This document shows, in pieces, positions 5,194 through 44,487 of a stretch of 64,000 nt of DNA. Below the pieces are notes generated by a model. That model ran no database searches, had not been told where the DNA came from, and saw nothing but the letters and a program-made list of their open reading frames with translations. The stretch lies in NCBI RefSeq assembly GCF_988242995.1, contig NZ_OZ547043.1, one strand, 5' to 3'. A program made the translations under genes and the position numbers. Within the stretch, counting starts at the first letter, position 1, and the number at the start of each line of letters is the position of its first letter.

Positions 5194-6330
5194 ATGTTTG
5201 ATTATGAAACATTGCGCTTCATCTGGTGGCTGCTGATTGGCGTGATCCTGGTGGTCTTTATGATCTCCGACGGATTTGACATGGGGATTGGCTGTTTGCT
5301 GCCGCTGGTGGCGCGTGATGATGATGAACGCCGGATAGTGATTAATAGCGTTGGTGCGCACTGGGAAGGCAATCAGGTCTGGTTGATCCTCGCAGGTGGG
5401 GCATTATTTGCCGCCTGGCCCAGAGTGTATGCAGCGGCGTTTTCCGGCTTTTATGTGGCGATGATCCTGGTGCTGTGCTCGCTGTTCTTCCGCCCGCTGG
5501 CCTTTGATTATCGCGGAAAAATTGCCGATGCACGCTGGCGTAAAATGTGGGATGCCGGTCTGGTCATCGGCAGTCTGGTGCCGCCGGTAGTCTTCGGTAT
5601 CGCCTTCGGCAACTTGTTGCTCGGCGTGCCGTTTGCCTTTACACCGCAATTACGCGTGGAGTATCTCGGCAGCTTCTGGCAACTGCTGACGCCATTCCCT
5701 TTATTGTGCGGATTGCTCAGCCTTGGGATGGTGATTTTGCAAGGTGGCGTCTGGTTACAACTGAAAACTGTTGGTGTGATTCATCTGCGTTCACAGCTGG
5801 CGACCAAACGCGCCGCACTGCTGGTGATGCTGTGCTTTTTGCTGGCGGGTTACTGGCTGTGGGTCGGTATTGATGGCTTTGTACTGCTCGCCCAGGATGC
5901 TAACGGTCCTTCCAATCCGTTAATGAAACTGGTGGCAGTGCTACCTGGTGCCTGGATGAATAATTTCGTCGAATCGCCCGTTCTGTGGATCTTCCCGCTG
6001 CTGGGGTTCTTCTGCCCATTGCTGACGGTGATGGCGATTTATCGTGGTCGCCCGGGTTGGGGATTTATGATGGCGTCATTGATGCAATTTGGCGTGATTT
6101 TCACGGCAGGCATCACGCTGTTCCCCTTTGTCATGCCGTCAAGCGTGAGTCCGATCTCCAGCCTGACGTTGTGGGACAGTACTTCCAGTCAGCTGACGCT
6201 GAGCATCATGTTGGTAATCGTGCTGATATTTTTGCCCATTGTGTTGCTCTACACTCTCTGGAGCTACTACAAAATGTGGGGGCGCATGACAACAGAAACT
6301 CTCCGCCGTAACGAAAACGAGCTGTACTAA
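5194..6330 (+). CDS. appB: cytochrome bd-II ubiquinol oxidase subunit II
   Basis: 378 aa membrane ORF directly after appC. Confidence 0.95.
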
Positions 6331-6342
6331 GGAGCAGGAACA

Positions 6343-6435
6343 ATGTGGTATTTACTTTGGTTCGTCGGCATTTTGTTGATGTGTTCGCTCTCCACCCTTG
6401 TGTTGGTATGGCTGGACCCGCGATTGAAAAGTTAA
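6343..6435 (+). CDS. appX: small cytochrome bd-II accessory membrane protein (30 aa)
   Basis: ATG at 6343 with RBS AGGAGCAGGAA; translation MWYLLWFVGILLMCSLSTLVLVWLDPRLKS; below track size cutoff. Confidence 0.8.
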   Translation: MWYLLWFVGILLMCSLSTLVLVWLDPRLKS

Positions 6436-6445
6436 CGAACGTAAG

Positions 6446-6476
6446 TCTGATGCGGCGCATTAGCGTCGTATCAGGC
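6446..6476. repeat. REP-like palindromic element
   Basis: ctgatgcggcgcattagcgtcgtatcaggc palindrome between appX and appA. Confidence 0.5.
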
Positions 6477-6514
6477 AATCAATAATGTCGGATATGAAAA
6501 GCGGAAACATATCG

Positions 6515-7825
6515 ATGAAAGCGATCTTGATCCCATTTTTATCTCTTCTGATTCCGTTAACCCCGCAATCTGCATTCGCTCAGAGTGAGCCGGAGCTGAA
6601 GCTGGAAAGTGTGGTGATTGTCAGTCGTCATGGTGTGCGTGCACCAACCAAGGCCACGCAACTGATGCAGGATGTCACCCCAGACGCATGGCCAACCTGG
6701 CCGGTAAAACTGGGTTGGCTGACACCGCGCGGTGGTGAGCTGATCGCCTATCTCGGACATTACCAACGCCAGCGTCTGGTAGCCGACGGATTGCTGACGA
6801 AAAAGGGCTGCCTGCAGCCTGGTCAGGTCGCGATTATTGCTGATGTCGACGAGCGTACCCGTAAAACAGGCGAAGCCTTCGCCGCCGGGCTGGCACCTGA
6901 CTGTGCAATAACCGTACATACCCAGGCAGATACGTCCAGTCCCGATCCGTTATTTAATCCTCTAAAAACTGGCGTTTGCCAACTGGATAACGCGAACGTG
7001 ACTGACGCGATCCTCAGCAGGGCAGGAGGGTCAATTGCTGACTTTACCGGGCATCGGCAAACGGCGTTTCGCGAACTGGAACGAGTGCTTAATTTTCCGC
7101 AATCAAACTTGTGCCTTAACCGTGAGAAACAGGACGAAAGCTGTTCATTAACGCAGGCATTACCATCGGAACTCAAGGTGAGCGCCGACAATGTCTCATT
7201 AACCGGTGCGGTAAGTCTCGCATCAATGCTGACGGAGATATTTCTCCTGCAACAGGCACAAGGAATGCCGGAGCCGGGGTGGGGAAGGATCACTGATTCA
7301 CACCAGTGGAACACCTTGCTAAGTTTGCATAACGCGCAATTTTATTTACTACAACGCACGCCAGAGGTTGCCCGCAGTCGCGCCACCCCGTTATTGGATT
7401 TGATCATGGCAGCGTTGACGCCCCATCCACCGCAAAAACAGGCGTATGGTGTGACATTACCCACTTCAGTGCTGTTTATTGCCGGACACGATACTAATCT
7501 GGCAAATCTCGGCGGCGCACTGGAGCTCAACTGGACGCTTCCAGGCCAGCCGGATAACACGCCGCCAGGGGGTGAACTGGTGTTTGAACGCTGGCGTCGG
7601 CTAAGCGATAACAGCCAGTGGATTCAGGTTTCGCTGGTCTTCCAGACTTTACAGCAGATGCGTGATAAAACGCCGCTGTCATTAAATACGCCGCCCGGAG
7701 AGGTGAAACTGACCCTGGCAGGATGTGAAGAGCGAAATGCGCAGGGCATGTGTTCGTTGGCAGGTTTTACGCAAATCGTGAATGAAGCACGTATACCGGC
7801 GTGCGCTCTCCATCAAGACAAATAA
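6515..7825 (+). CDS. appA: periplasmic acid phosphatase / phytase
   Basis: Start at [12 protein letters not shown] signal peptide; RHGVRAP histidine acid phosphatase motif; C-terminus here reads ...[10 protein letters not shown] and overlaps cspH 3' end. Confidence 0.9.
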
Positions 7826-8025
7826 ACATTTGCCGCTGTTGGTCCTCGCAGGCCATTTACGCGGCAAAATTCCACGCGTAATCCTGGTATAAGCACTTCT
7901 GCGTCGCGGGGAGTGAATGCGGAAATATGGACCTGGACTTCTTTACGACCGTCGGAGGGGATAATGAATCCTTTGCCGCTTTTGCGATCAAAGGTTTTGA
8001 CAATTCCTGTCATTTTACGGGACAA
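7813..8025 (-). CDS. cspH: cold shock-like protein CspH
   Basis: 70 aa CspA-family ORF ([21 protein letters not shown]). Confidence 0.9.
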
Positions 8026-8310
8026 ACAAATTCCTTACTGAATATACTGCGCTGCACTATACGGGGTTAATAAAATAAAGCCAGCGATATTTAAGACCGC
8101 CGGACGGCTAAAATAAAATTTGCTTAATCTCAATTATCATGCGTTAATAGCTGCGTCGGTTTGAAAGACAGACAGCATACAAAGTAGTTTACTAAAGCAG
8201 TTCTCATTATCAGGCATTATCCCCTTCTTTTGAGTCTCTCTCCTGAACACTAAGTAGTTTCTGTATTAAAGCCCTGTTTGCCGAAAGGCCCAAAATGAAG
8301 GAAGTAAAAT

Positions 8311-8523
8311 ATGTCTAATAAAATGACTGGTTTAGTAAAATGGTTTAACGCAGATAAAGGTTTTGGCTTTATCACTCCTGATGATGGCAGCAAAGACGTT
8401 TTCGTCCATTTCACCGCCATCCAGAGCAATGAATTCCGCACGCTGAACGAAAATCAGAAAGTTGAATTTTCTATTGAGCAGGGGCAGCGTGGCCCTGCGG
8501 CAGCGAACGTTGTTACGCTCTAA
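8311..8523 (+). CDS. cspG: cold shock protein CspG
   Basis: 70 aa CspA-family ORF ([21 protein letters not shown]), divergent from cspH. Confidence 0.92.
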
Positions 8524-8533
8524 GGTTGCCGTT

Positions 8534-8722
8534 ATTACTCAACATCTCCATTTCCGCTGTCCATGTTGTCATGGTTCACAGTACCGCACATCGGCATTCG
8601 ATGTGACGGAGCGAAACCCTTTGGGCGCTAAGTGTATTTTTTGTAAATCGACGATGATCACCTTTGATAACGTCGCGCTGCAAATACGCACTGACCATGC
8701 GCCGCTGGATTTCACAAAATAA
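8534..8722 (+). CDS. possible small zinc-ribbon protein (ymcF-like); start codon uncertain
   Basis: Open frame encoding CPCCHGSQYRT...CIFCKS (two CxxC pairs) between cspG and ymcE; no canonical start downstream of cspG stop. Confidence 0.3.
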   Translation: MTQHLHFRCPCCHGSQYRTSAFDVTERNPLGAKCIFCKSTMITFDNVALQIRTDHAPLDFTK

Positions 8723-8927
8723 TATCAGGCTCCCTTGTGGAGCCTTTTTTATATCTGCCTTATTTTTCTTCAACGCTGTATGTATAGTAAGCGATAACCT
8801 GTTGATTATTGAATCTTTCGGGGAGATGGCTTATAACATTTCTTACCTGACCAGGGTACCGGGAACCAACACCTTACTGGCGTGTTGCTGTCTTTTAAGA
8901 CCAGAAGAGGTTAACAGTGAATATTGA
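8697..8927 (+). CDS. ymcE: small membrane protein YmcE
   Basis: 76 aa from ATG 8697 (MRRWISQNNIRLP). Confidence 0.7.
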   Translation: MRRWISQNNIRLPCGAFFISALFFFNAVCIVSDNLLIIESFGEMAYNISYLTRVPGTNTLLACCCLLRPEEVNSEY

Positions 8928-9090
8928 AGAGTTAAAAAAACAAGCCGAAACGGAAATCGCCGACTTTATCGCGCAAAAAATCGCCGAGCTGAACAAAAAT
9001 ACAGGGAAAGAAGTCTCTGAAATTCGCTTCACCGCACGAGAAAAAATGACCGGGCTTGAAAGTTATGATGTCAAAATCAAAATAATGTGA
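8917..9090 (+). CDS. gnsA: GnsA, 57 aa regulator/antitoxin-like protein
   Basis: GTG start at 8917, translation MNIEELKKQAETEIADFIAQKIAELNK...; overlaps ymcE 3' end. Confidence 0.8.
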   Translation: MNIEELKKQAETEIADFIAQKIAELNKNTGKEVSEIRFTAREKMTGLESYDVKIKIM

Positions 9091-9138
9091 TTTTGTGAAC
9101 ATCACCCCGTGCGAGGTGATGTTCCGCTTGTTGCTAAT

Positions 9139-10212
9139 TTAGTGCCCAATCATTGTCGCTTGCGGAATTAAGCGTCGGTACAATTCCTCCGGCACCGGGC
9201 TTTGCCATACTCCCGCATACATTGCGTAACCAATCACCGCAAACATAATCCCCAGAATCAGTAGCGTCATTAACCAGCCAGACAACGCAAAGGCTTTTTT
9301 ATTTGCCGCAGGTTTTTGCAGTGAAAAGGTCAATGTTGAGGCTACCGGACATGACTCTACGCAAGTCATACAGCCGGTACATTCCACTGTTCGTACCTGA
9401 ATTAATTTATCGACCGGGATCCGTGATGGGCAATTTTTTGCGCATTTGCCACAGTCGATACAACTTTCGGCATTGCGACGAATCTTAAACGGCGATAATA
9501 GCGAAACCACGCCCATCAGCGCGCCATATGGGCAAAGATAACGACACCAGGCATGGCGAATAAACAGGCTGGCAATCAGCAAAACGGTCACGCTGATTAA
9601 TGTCGCGGTCCCCATATGACGAAAGAAATCGAGCATTTTAACGTCCATCACCACGCTGTAGGGCGACAACATAAAATAGTGAATCGCCTGAGCGGGCATC
9701 AATAACGCAATATAGAGAAAAAAACTCAACAGCAAATACTTCACGCCGCGCAGAGGAATATCCAGCCAGCGGGGAAGGACACATTGCCGACCAAACAGTT
9801 TGTTACCGAGATCGCCGATTAATTCAGAAAGCGTACCAACCGGGCATAACCATGAACAAAAGGCCTTTTTGAGTAATAGACTGATGACGATAAAAGCGAC
9901 CAATAACAGCATCGTGGCGGCGTGGACGGACGGTAACTGACCTGTTGCAAGGCTATATTTCAGATTCATCAGACCGGCAATCGGTAGCCAGCCTTCGATA
10001 CCTCCCGGTCTGGCGACAAATGTCGTACTACCTGCCGTTTCGTAATAGCGCACCCAATACCAGAACGTGATGGCAATATAAATATTCATTGCCAACAGCA
10101 ATAATTGCGTCGCTTTACGCCAGGTCGTGGCATTGCGCCAGTCATTCCACGGTAATTTGCCGCCCGTCGTGCCTGGCCGCCGCTGCCAGCGGGTTCTTCT
10201 TTTCTCTGTCAT
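9139..10212 (-). CDS. yccM: 4Fe-4S ferredoxin-type membrane protein YccM
   Basis: 357 aa ORF with CxxCxxCxxxCP clusters and TM segments. Confidence 0.9.
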   Translation of the reverse strand: MTEKRRTRWQRRPGTTGGKLPWNDWRNATTWRKATQLLLLAMNIYIAITFWYWVRYYETAGSTTFVARPGGIEGWLPIAGLMNLKYSLATGQLPSVHAATMLLLVAFIVISLLLKKAFCSWLCPVGTLSELIGDLGNKLFGRQCVLPRWLDIPLRGVKYLLLSFFLYIALLMPAQAIHYFMLSPYSVVMDVKMLDFFRHMGTATLISVTVLLIASLFIRHAWCRYLCPYGALMGVVSLLSPFKIRRNAESCIDCGKCAKNCPSRIPVDKLIQVRTVECTGCMTCVESCPVASTLTFSLQKPAANKKAFALSGWLMTLLILGIMFAVIGYAMYAGVWQSPVPEELYRRLIPQATMIGH

Positions 10213-10283
10213 GATTTTGCCAGTCTGTTAAGTTGCATACCAAATGCCACTATTCTAGTTGTTCTTAACTGGCTGATATTGAT

Positions 10284-37441: not shown

Positions 37442-37485
37442 GGGAAGGCGTTTTACCGAAAATCCCACGTCATAATCAGAAGCAG

Positions 37486-37521
37486 GCAGAGGGCAATCAG
37501 TGATTGCCCTCTGCGTTTTTT
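37486..37521 (+). terminator. rho-independent terminator after putP
   Basis: gcagagggcaatcagtgattgccctctgc stem followed by tttttt. Confidence 0.7.
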
Positions 37522-37660
37522 CTCAAAATATTTTTACATTTTCTCATCATTATCACTACATTCCGCTTGTATTTTTCTTTGCCGTAATGATAATCGCTAT
37601 CACTGCGATTTACTTTTCTTTGCATAGATTGACTCAGAAAAACGTTTAAGGGTGGGTGGC

Positions 37661-39681: not shown

Positions 39682-40953
39682 ATGCAGTATGAAGATGAAA
39701 ACGGCGTGAATGAACCGTCACGCCGACGTTTACTGAAAGGGATTGGTGCGCTGGCGCTGGCGGGAAGTTGTCCGGTCGCTCATGCACAAAAAACGCAAAG
39801 TGCACCGGGTACGCTTTCACCGGATGCACGCAATGAGAAACAGCTGTTTTATGGTGAGCATCAGGCAGGGATCCTGACGCCACAACAGGCCGCAATGATG
39901 CTGGTGGCGTTTGATGTGCTTGCCAGCGATAAAGCCGATCTTGAGCGGTTGTTTCGCTTGTTGACTCAGCGTTTTGCTTTTCTGACTCAGGGCGGAGCAG
40001 CACCAGAAACGCCAAATCCGCGCCTGCCACCACTCGATTCCGGCATTCTTGGCGGCTACATTGCGCCCGATAATCTCACCATCACATTATCGGTGGGCCA
40101 CTCATTGTTTGATGAGCGCTTTGGCCTTGCGTCGCAGATGCCGAAAAAGTTGCAGAAGATGACGCGTTTCCCCAACGACTCGCTTGATGCAGCATTATGT
40201 CATGGTGATGTGTTGCTACAAATTTGCGCCAACACCCAGGATACGGTGATCCATGCGCTGCGCGATATCATCAAACACACGCCGGATTTGCTCAGTGTGC
40301 GCTGGAAGCGGGAAGGGTTTATTTCCGATCACGCGGCGCGTAGTAAAGGCAAAGAGACGCCGATTAATTTGCTGGGTTTCAAAGACGGCACTGCCAATCC
40401 CGATAGCCAGAATGATAAGTTGATGCAAAAAGTGGTGTGGGTGACGGCAGATCAGCAGGAGCCTGCGTGGACAATCGGCGGCAGCTACCAGGCGGTGCGG
40501 TTGATTCAGTTTCGGGTGGAATTTTGGGACAGAACGCCGCTGAAAGAACAGCAGACGATATTTGGGCGTGATAAGCAAACCGGCGCGCCGCTGGGAATGC
40601 AGCATGAGCATGATGTTCCCGATTACGCCAGCGATCCGGAAGGGAAGGTGATTGCGCTGGACAGCCATATCCGGCTGGCGAATCCCCGCACGCCAGAGAG
40701 TGAGTCAAGTCTGATGCTGCGTCGTGGCTACAGTTATTCGTTGGGCGTCACCAACTCCGGACAACTGGATATGGGGCTACTGTTTGTCTGCTATCAACAC
40801 GATCTGGAAAAAGGCTTCCTGACAGTACAAAAAAGGCTCAATGGCGAAGCGCTGGAGGAATACGTTAAACCTATCGGCGGCGGTTATTTTTTTTCGCTGC
40901 CGGGAGTGAAGGACGCGAACGATTATCTCGGAAGCGCGTTATTACAGGTTTGA
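39682..40953 (+). CDS. efeB: Tat-exported DyP-type heme peroxidase EfeB
   Basis: 423 aa, twin-arginine signal [10 protein letters not shown]. Confidence 0.93.
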
Positions 40954-40959
40954 ACGACG

Positions 40960-41060
40960 CAAATATGCCCGATGCGCAGGTTTATCGGGCATGAGTTTTG
41001 TGCACAAATTATTAATCACTTGTAGGTCGGGTAAGGCGTTCACGCCGCATCCGGCAAGTT
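40960..41060. repeat. REP-type palindromic elements
   Basis: gcccgatgcgcaggtttatcgggc and tgtaggtcgggtaaggcgttcacgccgcatccggcaag after efeB. Confidence 0.5.
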
Positions 41061-42357: not shown

Positions 42358-42388
42358 AGCCCGGGCGAACCGGGCTTTGTTTTATTTC
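42358..42388 (+). terminator. rho-independent terminator after phoH
   Basis: agcccgggcgaaccgggct stem followed by T-rich run. Confidence 0.7.
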
Positions 42389-42902
42389 ATTAACAGCAAA
42401 GACTTTCACTTCAGGTTAACGTTCAGGGGGGCGACTTTGAGCGTGTTGATAAGCTGAAATGAATTCTGGTTTAGATACTCTTACCAGGCATTTTTCGTCA
42501 TAGCACCCGACCAGTGTAATGCCGCCAGCGCGGAGAGTTTTTTGCCTATCTTTTTCCAGCCATTCAACCTGTACAGGAGGTCTGGTGCCAATTTTGCGTA
42601 TGAGGTTTAATCAGCAATGGGCCATAATTTGACTGACTGATTAACACCGAATATATTCTCCTGATTTTATTTTTTAGGGATAATATTAAAAATATAAGGT
42701 TAATCTTAATTAATTCTTCAGCTAATATTGTGTGTTGTTATTTTTTGTGGACGGCAAGCCGCAATGGCAAAATAGGTATGGTTGTAATAATCAAAACATG
42801 ATACTAACTATATATAGATCGTTGAATTGTTGGCATGTAACTCGCTACAGCGAGTAGCGTTAGTAATGAAATATAATCAACATGGATAGGTGAAGATTAA
42901 TT

Positions 42903-43589
42903 ATGAGCTTTATGGTTTTTGTAACTTGTTTGACAATTGCATTTGTCGCCGGTTTTGCTGTTGCCAGAAAATTGACACTCCGAAAAGTTGCCTCATCGGT
43001 AATCATCACTAGATCGCAACCAGTCCCTTCCTCTGCAACTTCCCCTGCGGCTAAGGCGTCGACAAGGAGCTATACACCGCAGAAAACCTATCGTGACTCT
43101 CGTTGGCAAGAACGAGATGAGTTGTTCCAGGGAATGGTTGCCGAAGGTATTTTATTGGAAGGAAAAGAGTGGTTAATTACGCGTTGTGAAAAAATTTATT
43201 TTGATAATCTGGAGAAATGGTTTGGACATTATTGTCATATCCATTGCCAGGTCTCTCTGGGGCGCTTGATCAACTTTCCAGAACAACCCGAGTTTAGCGA
43301 AGAAGAAAGAAAGCGTTTCTTTGCAATTTATAATGGAATGGCAATGGATTATGTTCTGGTTTCAAAGAAGAACAATAAAATAGTCTGTGTTATTGAGCTG
43401 GATGATCCGAGTCATGAAAGGGCAGATCGCATTATTCGTGACCGTTGGTTGAATACGATTATGACTATTGCACGGGTGCCTTTTGTACGAGCTTCTGTCA
43501 CTAAATTGGATGAAATCCCTCCGGTCTGGGATACCCGTGACAAAATTCGCCCATTAGCCGCGGCGACAAAGGGTGAACCGTTGCATTAA
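42903..43589 (+). CDS. membrane-anchored protein with DUF2726 / restriction-endonuclease-like C-terminal domain (accessory)
   Basis: 228 aa; N-terminal hydrophobic helix (FMVFVTCLTIAFVAGFAV); C-terminal DYVLVSKKNNKIVCVIELDDPSH resembles DUF2726; AT-rich 5' region. Confidence 0.7.
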   Translation: MSFMVFVTCLTIAFVAGFAVARKLTLRKVASSVIITRSQPVPSSATSPAAKASTRSYTPQKTYRDSRWQERDELFQGMVAEGILLEGKEWLITRCEKIYFDNLEKWFGHYCHIHCQVSLGRLINFPEQPEFSEEERKRFFAIYNGMAMDYVLVSKKNNKIVCVIELDDPSHERADRIIRDRWLNTIMTIARVPFVRASVTKLDEIPPVWDTRDKIRPLAAATKGEPLH

Positions 43590-43595
43590 CTAAGT

Positions 43596-43674
43596 ACCCC
43601 GGTCGGGGCTCCTCATCCCCCCGGTGTGTGCAATATACGAAAAAAAAGCCCGTACTTTCGTACGAGCTCTTCTT
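43596..43674. repeat. left copy of serX 3'-flank repeat (part A), interrupted by IS200
   Basis: 79 bp nearly identical to 44488-44565. Confidence 0.8.
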
Positions 43675-44385
43675 GTGCACAGAAAACCCCCAGCTAGGCT
43701 GGGGGTTCCGGAAAGCTTTCAGCTTTGAGCCAGTTATTAAAACCCCTTTTGATTTGTTAAAACACCTTGCGGTCTGGCAACTGCAAGTGTCAAACAAGAA
43801 ATCAAAAGGGGGTCCCAATGGGGGACGAAAAGAGCTTAGCGCACACCCGCTGGAACTGTAAATATCACATAGTTTTTGCGCCGAAATACCGAAGACTGGC
43901 GTTTTACGGAGAGAAGCGTAGGGCGATAGGCAGTATTTTGAGAAAGCTGTGTGAGTGGAAAAGCGTACGGATTCTGGAAGCAGAGTGCTGCGCAGATCAT
44001 ATCCATATGCTTGTGGAAATCCCACCCAAAATGAGCGTATCCGGCTTTATGGGATATCTGAAAGGGAAAAGCAGTCTGATGCTTTACGAGCAGTTTGGGG
44101 ATTTGAAATTCAAATACAGAAACAGGGAGTTCTGGTGCCGAGGGTACTATGTCGATACGGTGGGTAAGAACACGGCGAAGATACAGGACTACATAAAGCA
44201 CCAGCTTGAAGAGGATAAAATGGGAGAGCAGTTATCGATTCCCTATCCGGGCAGCCCGTTTACGGGCCGTAAGTAACGAAGTTGGATGCAAATGTCAGAT
44301 CGTGTGCGCCTGTTAGGGCGCGGCTGGTAACAGAGCCTTACAGGCGCATTTGAAAAACCTCCGGCTATGCCGGAGGATATTTATT
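43675..44385 (+). mobile_element. IS200-family insertion sequence (~711 bp, approximate ends)
   Basis: Left hairpin cccccagctaggctggggg, RBS-sequestering stem ccccttttgattt/aaatcaaaaggggg, tnpA, right hairpin cctccggctatgccggagg. Confidence 0.85.
43818..44276 (+). CDS. tnpA: IS200 transposase TnpA (HUH Y1 transposase)
   Basis: 152 aa from ATG 43818 (MGDEKSLAHTRWNCKYHIVFAPKYRR); HiH motif in ADHIHMLV, catalytic Tyr region GYYVDTVG. Confidence 0.9.
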   Translation: MGDEKSLAHTRWNCKYHIVFAPKYRRLAFYGEKRRAIGSILRKLCEWKSVRILEAECCADHIHMLVEIPPKMSVSGFMGYLKGKSSLMLYEQFGDLKFKYRNREFWCRGYYVDTVGKNTAKIQDYIKHQLEEDKMGEQLSIPYPGSPFTGRK

Positions 44386-44410
44386 TAAATATGGCGGTGA
44401 GGGGGGGATT
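44386..44410. repeat. left copy of serX 3' end repeat (part B): duplicate of last 19 nt of serX plus junction
   Basis: tttaaatatggcggtgagggggggatt vs tttaaagatggcggtgagggggggatt at 44564-44590. Confidence 0.8.
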
Positions 44411-44487
44411 GACTCGCTTCGCTCGCCCTGCGGGCAGCCCGCTCACTGCGTTCACGGTCTGTCCAACTGGCTGTCGCCAGTTGTCGA

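Follow-up and report, generated by a model that had tools for sequence, protein, structure and literature searches.

The appA–cspH junction without the group 4 capsule island as the probable ancestral arrangement in Escherichia

For both E. coli and Shigella sonnei, the operon for the group 4 capsule (G4C) has been described together with its flanking genes, cspH and appA (PMC4368438). In a survey of RefSeq genomes, only 15 of the 195 B2 strains (8%) had G4C genes, and most of these were LEE-positive, E2348/69 among them. G4C occurred mostly in intestinal pathotypes and is carried by phylogroup G, and the group 2 capsule was associated with phylogroups B2, D, and F (PMC8281228). It is already known that much of the species has no G4C cluster, and a locus devoid of it, such as the one described here, is ordinary. 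In K-12 (strain EMG2), the genes are ordered appA, etk, etp, gfcE, gfcD, gfcC, gfcB, gfcA, IS1, cspH, with 9047 nt between the stop codons of appA and cspH, and AppA has 432 amino acids and ends in ...IPACSL*, as the original prediction had stated for K-12.

We analysed a window of 64,000 nucleotides (64 kb), the whole stretch of DNA under consideration, in which appA and cspH adjoin directly. According to the list of open reading frames and the equivalent PGAP annotations, appA occupies positions 6515..7825 on the plus strand and encodes a periplasmic acid phosphatase/phytase of 436 amino acids; its frame is open from 6485, and the start at 6515 is the equivalent of the PGAP start in matching genomes. 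The TAA stop codon of appA (7823–7825) lies inside the convergent gene cspH (7813..8025, minus strand), which encodes a cold-shock-like protein of 70 amino acids with the tail ...NVYLS* and is closed by a TGA codon at 7813–7815, read as TCA on the plus strand. As had been predicted, the two coding 3′ ends, placed tail to tail, overlap in antisense by 13 bp (7813..7825), which was confirmed by the sequence and the list of reading frames. In this segment, appA and cspH share their third codon positions (7813, 7816, 7819, 7822, and 7825), and a table of codon phases revealed that the changes between species occur at 7816 and 7819, which are wobble sites of both genes, and are synonymous in both. 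The location of the variation at wobble positions common to appA and cspH explains why the overlap is evolutionarily stable.

The codons for the last four residues of AppA, H-Q-D-K (7811..7822, plus strand), are missing from the K-12-type gene, and the window translation ends in ...ALHQDK*. Immediately upstream, AppA codons 431–432 (7805..7810, plus strand) are hypervariable: they read GCT CTC in the window and AGT TTG in E. coli with the island, and the outgroups described below have AGT/AGC TTA, TCT CTC or ACT CTC; these codons lie a little outside the 13-bp overlap. On the other side of cspH, the divergent gene cspG (8311–8523, plus strand) has a 5′ UTR of the cspA thermoregulator type, and the region comprising cspG and this element (8155..8577, plus strand) was recognized by Rfam model RF01766 with 156 bits. 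An Rfam scan of positions 6000–10500 detected no RNA element at 7790–8030, and its other output was limited to the cspG thermoregulator and a sub-threshold match. The latter, to the Salmonella sRNA STnc220, is located 3′ of cspG in the ymcF/ymcE region (8680–8760) and scored 34.6 bits, well short of the gathering score, which is 60.

Both proteins are clear members of their families. AppA of the window is 98.3% identical to K-12 AppA by tblastn, it is matched by the AppA chains of the PDB (1DKL, 7Z1J) with an E value of about 1e-275 over residues 23–432, and its translation contains the catalytic motifs RHGxRxP and HD (SRHGVRAPT and AGHDTN); the homology thus covers the full length of the family fold together with its active site. 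The only other AppA-like tblastn match in the window is the paralogue agp, at about 22.4–23.6 kb. The K-12 or crystal-type end ...IPACSL is not present in the window protein, which is four residues longer, as was expected from the claim that its C-terminus differs from that of K-12. All the solved AppA structures end in ...ACSL, and the alignments with solved phytase and histidine acid phosphatase relatives (3zhc, 4ars, and 4arv) stop at query residue 431–432. Since residue 432 closes the homologous fold in these relatives, the four extra residues represent a variation of the tail, and the protein remains a member of the AppA family. HQDK is therefore a short tail located past the conserved histidine-acid-phosphatase fold and compatible with family membership, and we would expect it to have no effect on phytase function. 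CspH, a 70-residue cold-shock-domain protein encoded divergently from cspG, is 100% identical to its K-12 counterpart over residues 1–70, and the same protein accession (WP_000087763.1) is common to island-free and island-carrying genomes.

When the K-12 proteins Etk, Etp, and GfcA–E were used as tblastn queries, no match was obtained in the whole 64-kb window; thus, the seven export genes that define G4C between appA and cspH are missing, as predicted, and no gfc gene is located elsewhere in the window. The genes that flank the locus in K-12 and O157:H7 are the same as in the window, and flank identity to these two genomes is 97.6–98.4% up to position 7804 and from 7812 on (97.7% to K-12 around the junction). 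In the comparison with K-12, BLAST homology on the left side ends at 7804 and restarts on the right side at 7812, so that the breakpoint lies among the final appA codons, as predicted. Together with the alignments of the junction, these breakpoints define an empty insertion site at 7810..7812. In island-carrying E. coli, the insert is placed between the position of codon 432 (7808–7810) and the dinucleotide AT at 7812–7813, and it has the following lengths: MRSN346595, 8271 nt; O157:H7, 8276 nt; GF130, 8270 nt; K-12, 9048 nt. The surplus of 777 nt in K-12 corresponds to the annotated IS1.

The insert also changes both sides of the junction. K-12 and O157:H7 differ from the window in carrying 8270–8276 bp of additional DNA (9048 bp with IS1 in K-12), in an AppA shortened to ...SL*, and in the last cspH codons, which are CTC TCT TAA instead of TTG TCT TGA. 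The first three bases of the island constitute the TAA stop codon of the K-12-type AppA, and what persists of the HQDK-encoding sequence beyond the island serves only as the closing codons of cspH. All four island carriers inspected (K-12, MRSN346595, O157:H7, and GF130) have the AppA end ...SL* followed by a hairpin just 3′ of the stop codon (−24.5 kcal/mol, z = −4.3). None of these carriers shares the window's AppA end. Of the two outcomes that the original prediction had named as speaking against it, a gfc genome with this AppA end and a gfc locus elsewhere in the window, neither was thus observed. The exact left boundary of the insert is ambiguous, being either after 7804 or after 7810. 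The codons AGT TTG of the carriers are nearer to the AGT/AGC TTA of two outgroups than to the GCT CTC of island-free E. coli, and since the outgroup codons encode the same residues (S-L) as AGT TTG of K-12, the island can be placed directly after codon 432 (L432).

To estimate how frequent this arrangement is, a 1.3-kb query spanning the junction was compared with 5426 complete RefSeq genomes of E. coli. The junction is contiguous in 1669 of them (about 31%), and in the remaining genomes the query splits at position 513–516, equivalent to 7812–7815 of the window. The K-12 island, from etk to gfcA, is present in 3745 complete genomes (about 69%), nearly always as a single copy. Genomes with a split junction number 3753 (5422 − 1669), so that the two counts are complementary and agree within a handful. 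At this single site, therefore, E. coli has two cleanly separated alleles, one with and one without the island, and the agreement between the counts suggests that the G4C island is essentially always found between appA and cspH.

The island-free genomes share the organization of the window closely. A 1311-nt appA overlapping cspH by 13 nt is routinely annotated in them by PGAP, for example in ST2747, ST95-32, Ecol_732, 7/2, N47, and MS20657. In ST95-32, Ecol_732 (ST131-type), 7/2, and ST2747, the gene order (appCB-cbdX-appA / cspH / cspG-ymcF-ymcE-gnsA-yccM-torS), the 13-bp overlap, the 1311-nt appA with the end ...ALHQDK*, and the identical CspH are all as in the window. The junctions of island-free genomes depart from that of the window by point substitutions only; identity is 98.1–99.4% over 1.3 kb and does not exceed 98.6% when 12 kb are compared. 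No complete RefSeq genome of E. coli exceeds 98.6% identity with the first 12 kb of the window, indicating that this lineage is poorly represented among complete genomes. ST2747, which has the closest junction match, is without yccM and most of torS, retaining pseudogene fragments (L001, 4840–5380), whereas in the window yccM (9139–10212) and torS (about 10287–13028) are intact.

A rare intermediate allele, CAT CAA GAG AGA TAA, was observed in six island-free genomes (N47, N64, N17, N24, N39, and MS20657). It encodes an AppA ending in ...ALHQER* and the cspH codons CTC TCT TGA (L017/L018, positions 725–745, equivalent to 7805–7825 of the window), and it is the same as the right junction of island carriers in all but the stop codon. 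Between E. coli with and without the island, 7–8 of the 23 nucleotides of the junction differ, although the flanks are about 98% identical. The intermediate allele explains most of the differences on the right side, but not those on the left, and the clustering of changes is thus only partly explained.

To determine the ancestral state, outgroup loci were sought by scanning a collection of species-representative genomes for AppA. Four usable loci were obtained, from E. whittamii, from Escherichia sp. E1V33, and from the strains E69 and SCPM-O-B-8794, both of which are titled E. coli; the scan did not recover E. albertii, E. fergusonii, or other genera with appA, and these outgroups are cryptic-clade-type lineages only. 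They are 89–92% identical to the window over 10–18 kb, a divergence at the species level, and each one is collinear through the junction in a single HSP. No etk or gfc match was detected in the four loci by tblastn. The spacing of 67 nt between conserved anchors in appA and cspH is the same in all of them, CspH invariably ends in ...NVYLS*, and the AppA tail is ...CSLHQDK* in E69, E. whittamii, and E1V33, and ...CTLYQDK* in SCPM-O-B-8794. Because the outgroups share this spacing and these tails in the absence of the island, the tail-to-tail overlap appears to be ancestral in Escherichia and the K-12 arrangement to be derived by insertion. We consider it very probable that the junction in the window is the ancestral island-free allele, and that the K-12 state arose through a later insertion of 8.27 kb, to which IS1 was added; the inferred direction of change is therefore insertion.

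These results bear on the two histories offered in the original prediction. An ancient deletion with loss of the G4C locus is contradicted by the same junction and the HQDK/YQDK tail in the four outgroups, which bear out the hedge that the ancestral arrangement might have been a different one. Likewise, the proposed alteration of the phytase C-terminus holds as a difference from K-12, but the outgroup tails indicate that the altered form is the ...SL* of K-12 and not that of the window. According to the insertion model, appA and cspH would have started as convergent core genes with an uninterrupted junction, and a gfcABCDE-etp-etk cassette would have entered at this point early in the diversification of E. 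coli. The event would have removed HQDK, provided a TAA stop codon and a strong hairpin after codon 432, and spared cspH. The strain of the window has the empty-site allele, in which AppA would retain its native four-residue tail, and it therefore lacks the machinery for G4C export, at any rate at this locus. No explicit statement of the polarity argument or of the exact insertion point was found in the literature searched; the insertion point, the overlap with shared wobble positions, and the rare intermediate allele are refinements of a known polymorphism and not a discovery.

The island itself offers few traces of how it arrived. No integrase gene is annotated in it, no terminal direct or inverted repeats were found at its ends (L008, 2600–11150), and its GC content (about 0.50–0.52) is like that of the flanks. 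With no integrase, terminal repeats, or GC deviation, it does not conform to a classical integrative genomic island, and the mechanism of insertion is not visible. Among 40 of the 9462 members of the 90%-identity cluster of GfcD, the entries of GfcD length were named E. coli or Shigella. The nearest GfcD relatives outside this cluster, about 80% identical, belong to Citrobacter freundii, Enterobacter hormaechei, and Scandinavium. In the cassettes of C. freundii and E. hormaechei, the seven genes are arranged as in the E. coli island, but the first cassette is located between dcuS and dsbD, the second between ligB and yicG, and neither is beside appA or cspH. Their nucleotide identity with the E. 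coli island is about 72% and is confined to coding regions; homology stops inside etk and gfcA, and none was detected between the non-coding ends. The presence of the same seven genes at unrelated sites indicates that the cassette was placed independently in different genomes. Within E. coli, the divergence of the island reaches 2.9–3.2%, a depth equal to that seen in the core genes on either side; between GF130 and K-12, for instance, the island differs by 2.9% and the flanks by 1.3–2.9%. The similar divergence of island and flanks indicates that the insertion is old and that the two alleles have long existed side by side.

This long coexistence of two old alleles, with island and flanks diverged about equally, also speaks for an allelic replacement, in which the lineage of the window once had the island and later exchanged it, through homologous recombination with an island-free strain, for the ancestral empty allele, so that the strain's state would be a secondary loss. 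The patchy distribution of G4C inside phylogroups (8% of B2, and its presence in phylogroup G; PMC8281228) shows that the locus does move by recombination. However, no recombination tract was seen in the window, the flanks are 97.6–98.1% identical to K-12 with no obvious step, and the closest complete genomes are all island-free, all of which makes a replacement in this lineage unlikely.

A deletion, by which a K-12-like ancestor lost about 8.3 kb and the appA tail was fused to the end of cspH to produce a new AppA C-terminus, would account for the 9047 nt of K-12 that the window does not have and for a breakpoint in the last codons of appA. Losses do occur at this site: in LC-1302-2020, an appA end of the K-12 type is followed by only 61 nt of the island and then by an IS3-family element and unrelated genes (L010, 4001–5400), which is a real secondary loss or rearrangement in an island-carrying background. 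Nevertheless, this secondary loss keeps the ...SL* end of AppA, and no island remnant was detected by tblastn in the window. Independent deletions could not have recreated each time the spacing, frame, and HQDK/YQDK tail that four species-level outgroups share. In addition, of the CAT at the empty site K-12 keeps only AT; joining the K-12 ends would therefore produce another frame without the stop codon at 7823–7825, and a search of E. coli genomes found no precise-excision allele in which the left and right ends of K-12 are joined. A recent transfer of the segment to the outgroups, which might revive the deletion, is at odds with the 8–11% divergence across the junction. Taken together, these observations render a deletion very improbable. 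The idea that a collapse or misjoin of the assembly removed the island, for which there is nothing beyond the difference from K-12, can be dismissed, given that both ORFs are intact and in frame and that the same junction is present in 1669 independently assembled complete genomes and four other species.

Returning to the insertion model, we considered the transcripts that converge at the ancestral junction. In the scan for promoters and terminators, neither strand of the junction yielded a predicted intrinsic terminator. The RNA 3′ of the appA stop codon in the window is only moderately stable compared with shuffled sequences (z = −2.1), and that 3′ of cspH is no better than shuffled (z = −0.1). 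Given that no predicted terminator separates the two genes, it is plausible that the appA and cspH transcripts have overlapping antisense 3′ ends in island-free strains. It could be speculated, with small odds of being right, that this terminator-less overlap, conserved in at least five Escherichia lineages, renders the two mRNAs obligatorily antisense at their 3′ ends and couples appA and cspH through transcriptional interference or RNase III-type processing. If so, the stop codon and bidirectional hairpin of the G4C cassette would have uncoupled the two genes in K-12-type strains, and what is known from K-12 about their 3′ ends and the AppA C-terminus would describe a derived state.

The insertion model also implies that K-12 should not be taken as the ancestral reference at the appA–cspH locus, and that the phytase of structural studies and industry, an AppA with the end ...ACSL, would be a form shortened by four residues when G4C was inserted. 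The empty-site strains, about 31% of the complete genomes, have no G4C export machinery at this locus, and the distribution of G4C and group 2 capsules fits the published links between capsule type and an intestinal or extraintestinal lifestyle.

Other differences were observed elsewhere in the window. The pgaABCD-dgcT block, which spans 8.1 kb in strain 7/2 (L019, 32506–40658), is missing at 42383–44471; between phoH and tRNA-Ser/ghrA there are instead an ORF of the DUF2726 type (42903–43589, plus strand) and a tnpA of the IS200C type (about 43767–44276, plus strand). The whole 3-kb stretch is common to only 2 of the 5426 complete genomes, with 96.3% identity, and several others, such as the O166:H15 strains, have phoH-DUF2726-tRNA-Ser without the IS. 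Compared also with strain 7/2, the putP-efeU spacer (37445–37558) is about 113 nt long instead of about 550 nt (L019, 27113–27660), a short patch after efeB (40951–41022) is unaligned, and the IS1397 that strain 7/2 carries between torD and cbpM (L019, 7576–8924) is absent from the corresponding site of the window (19276–19279).
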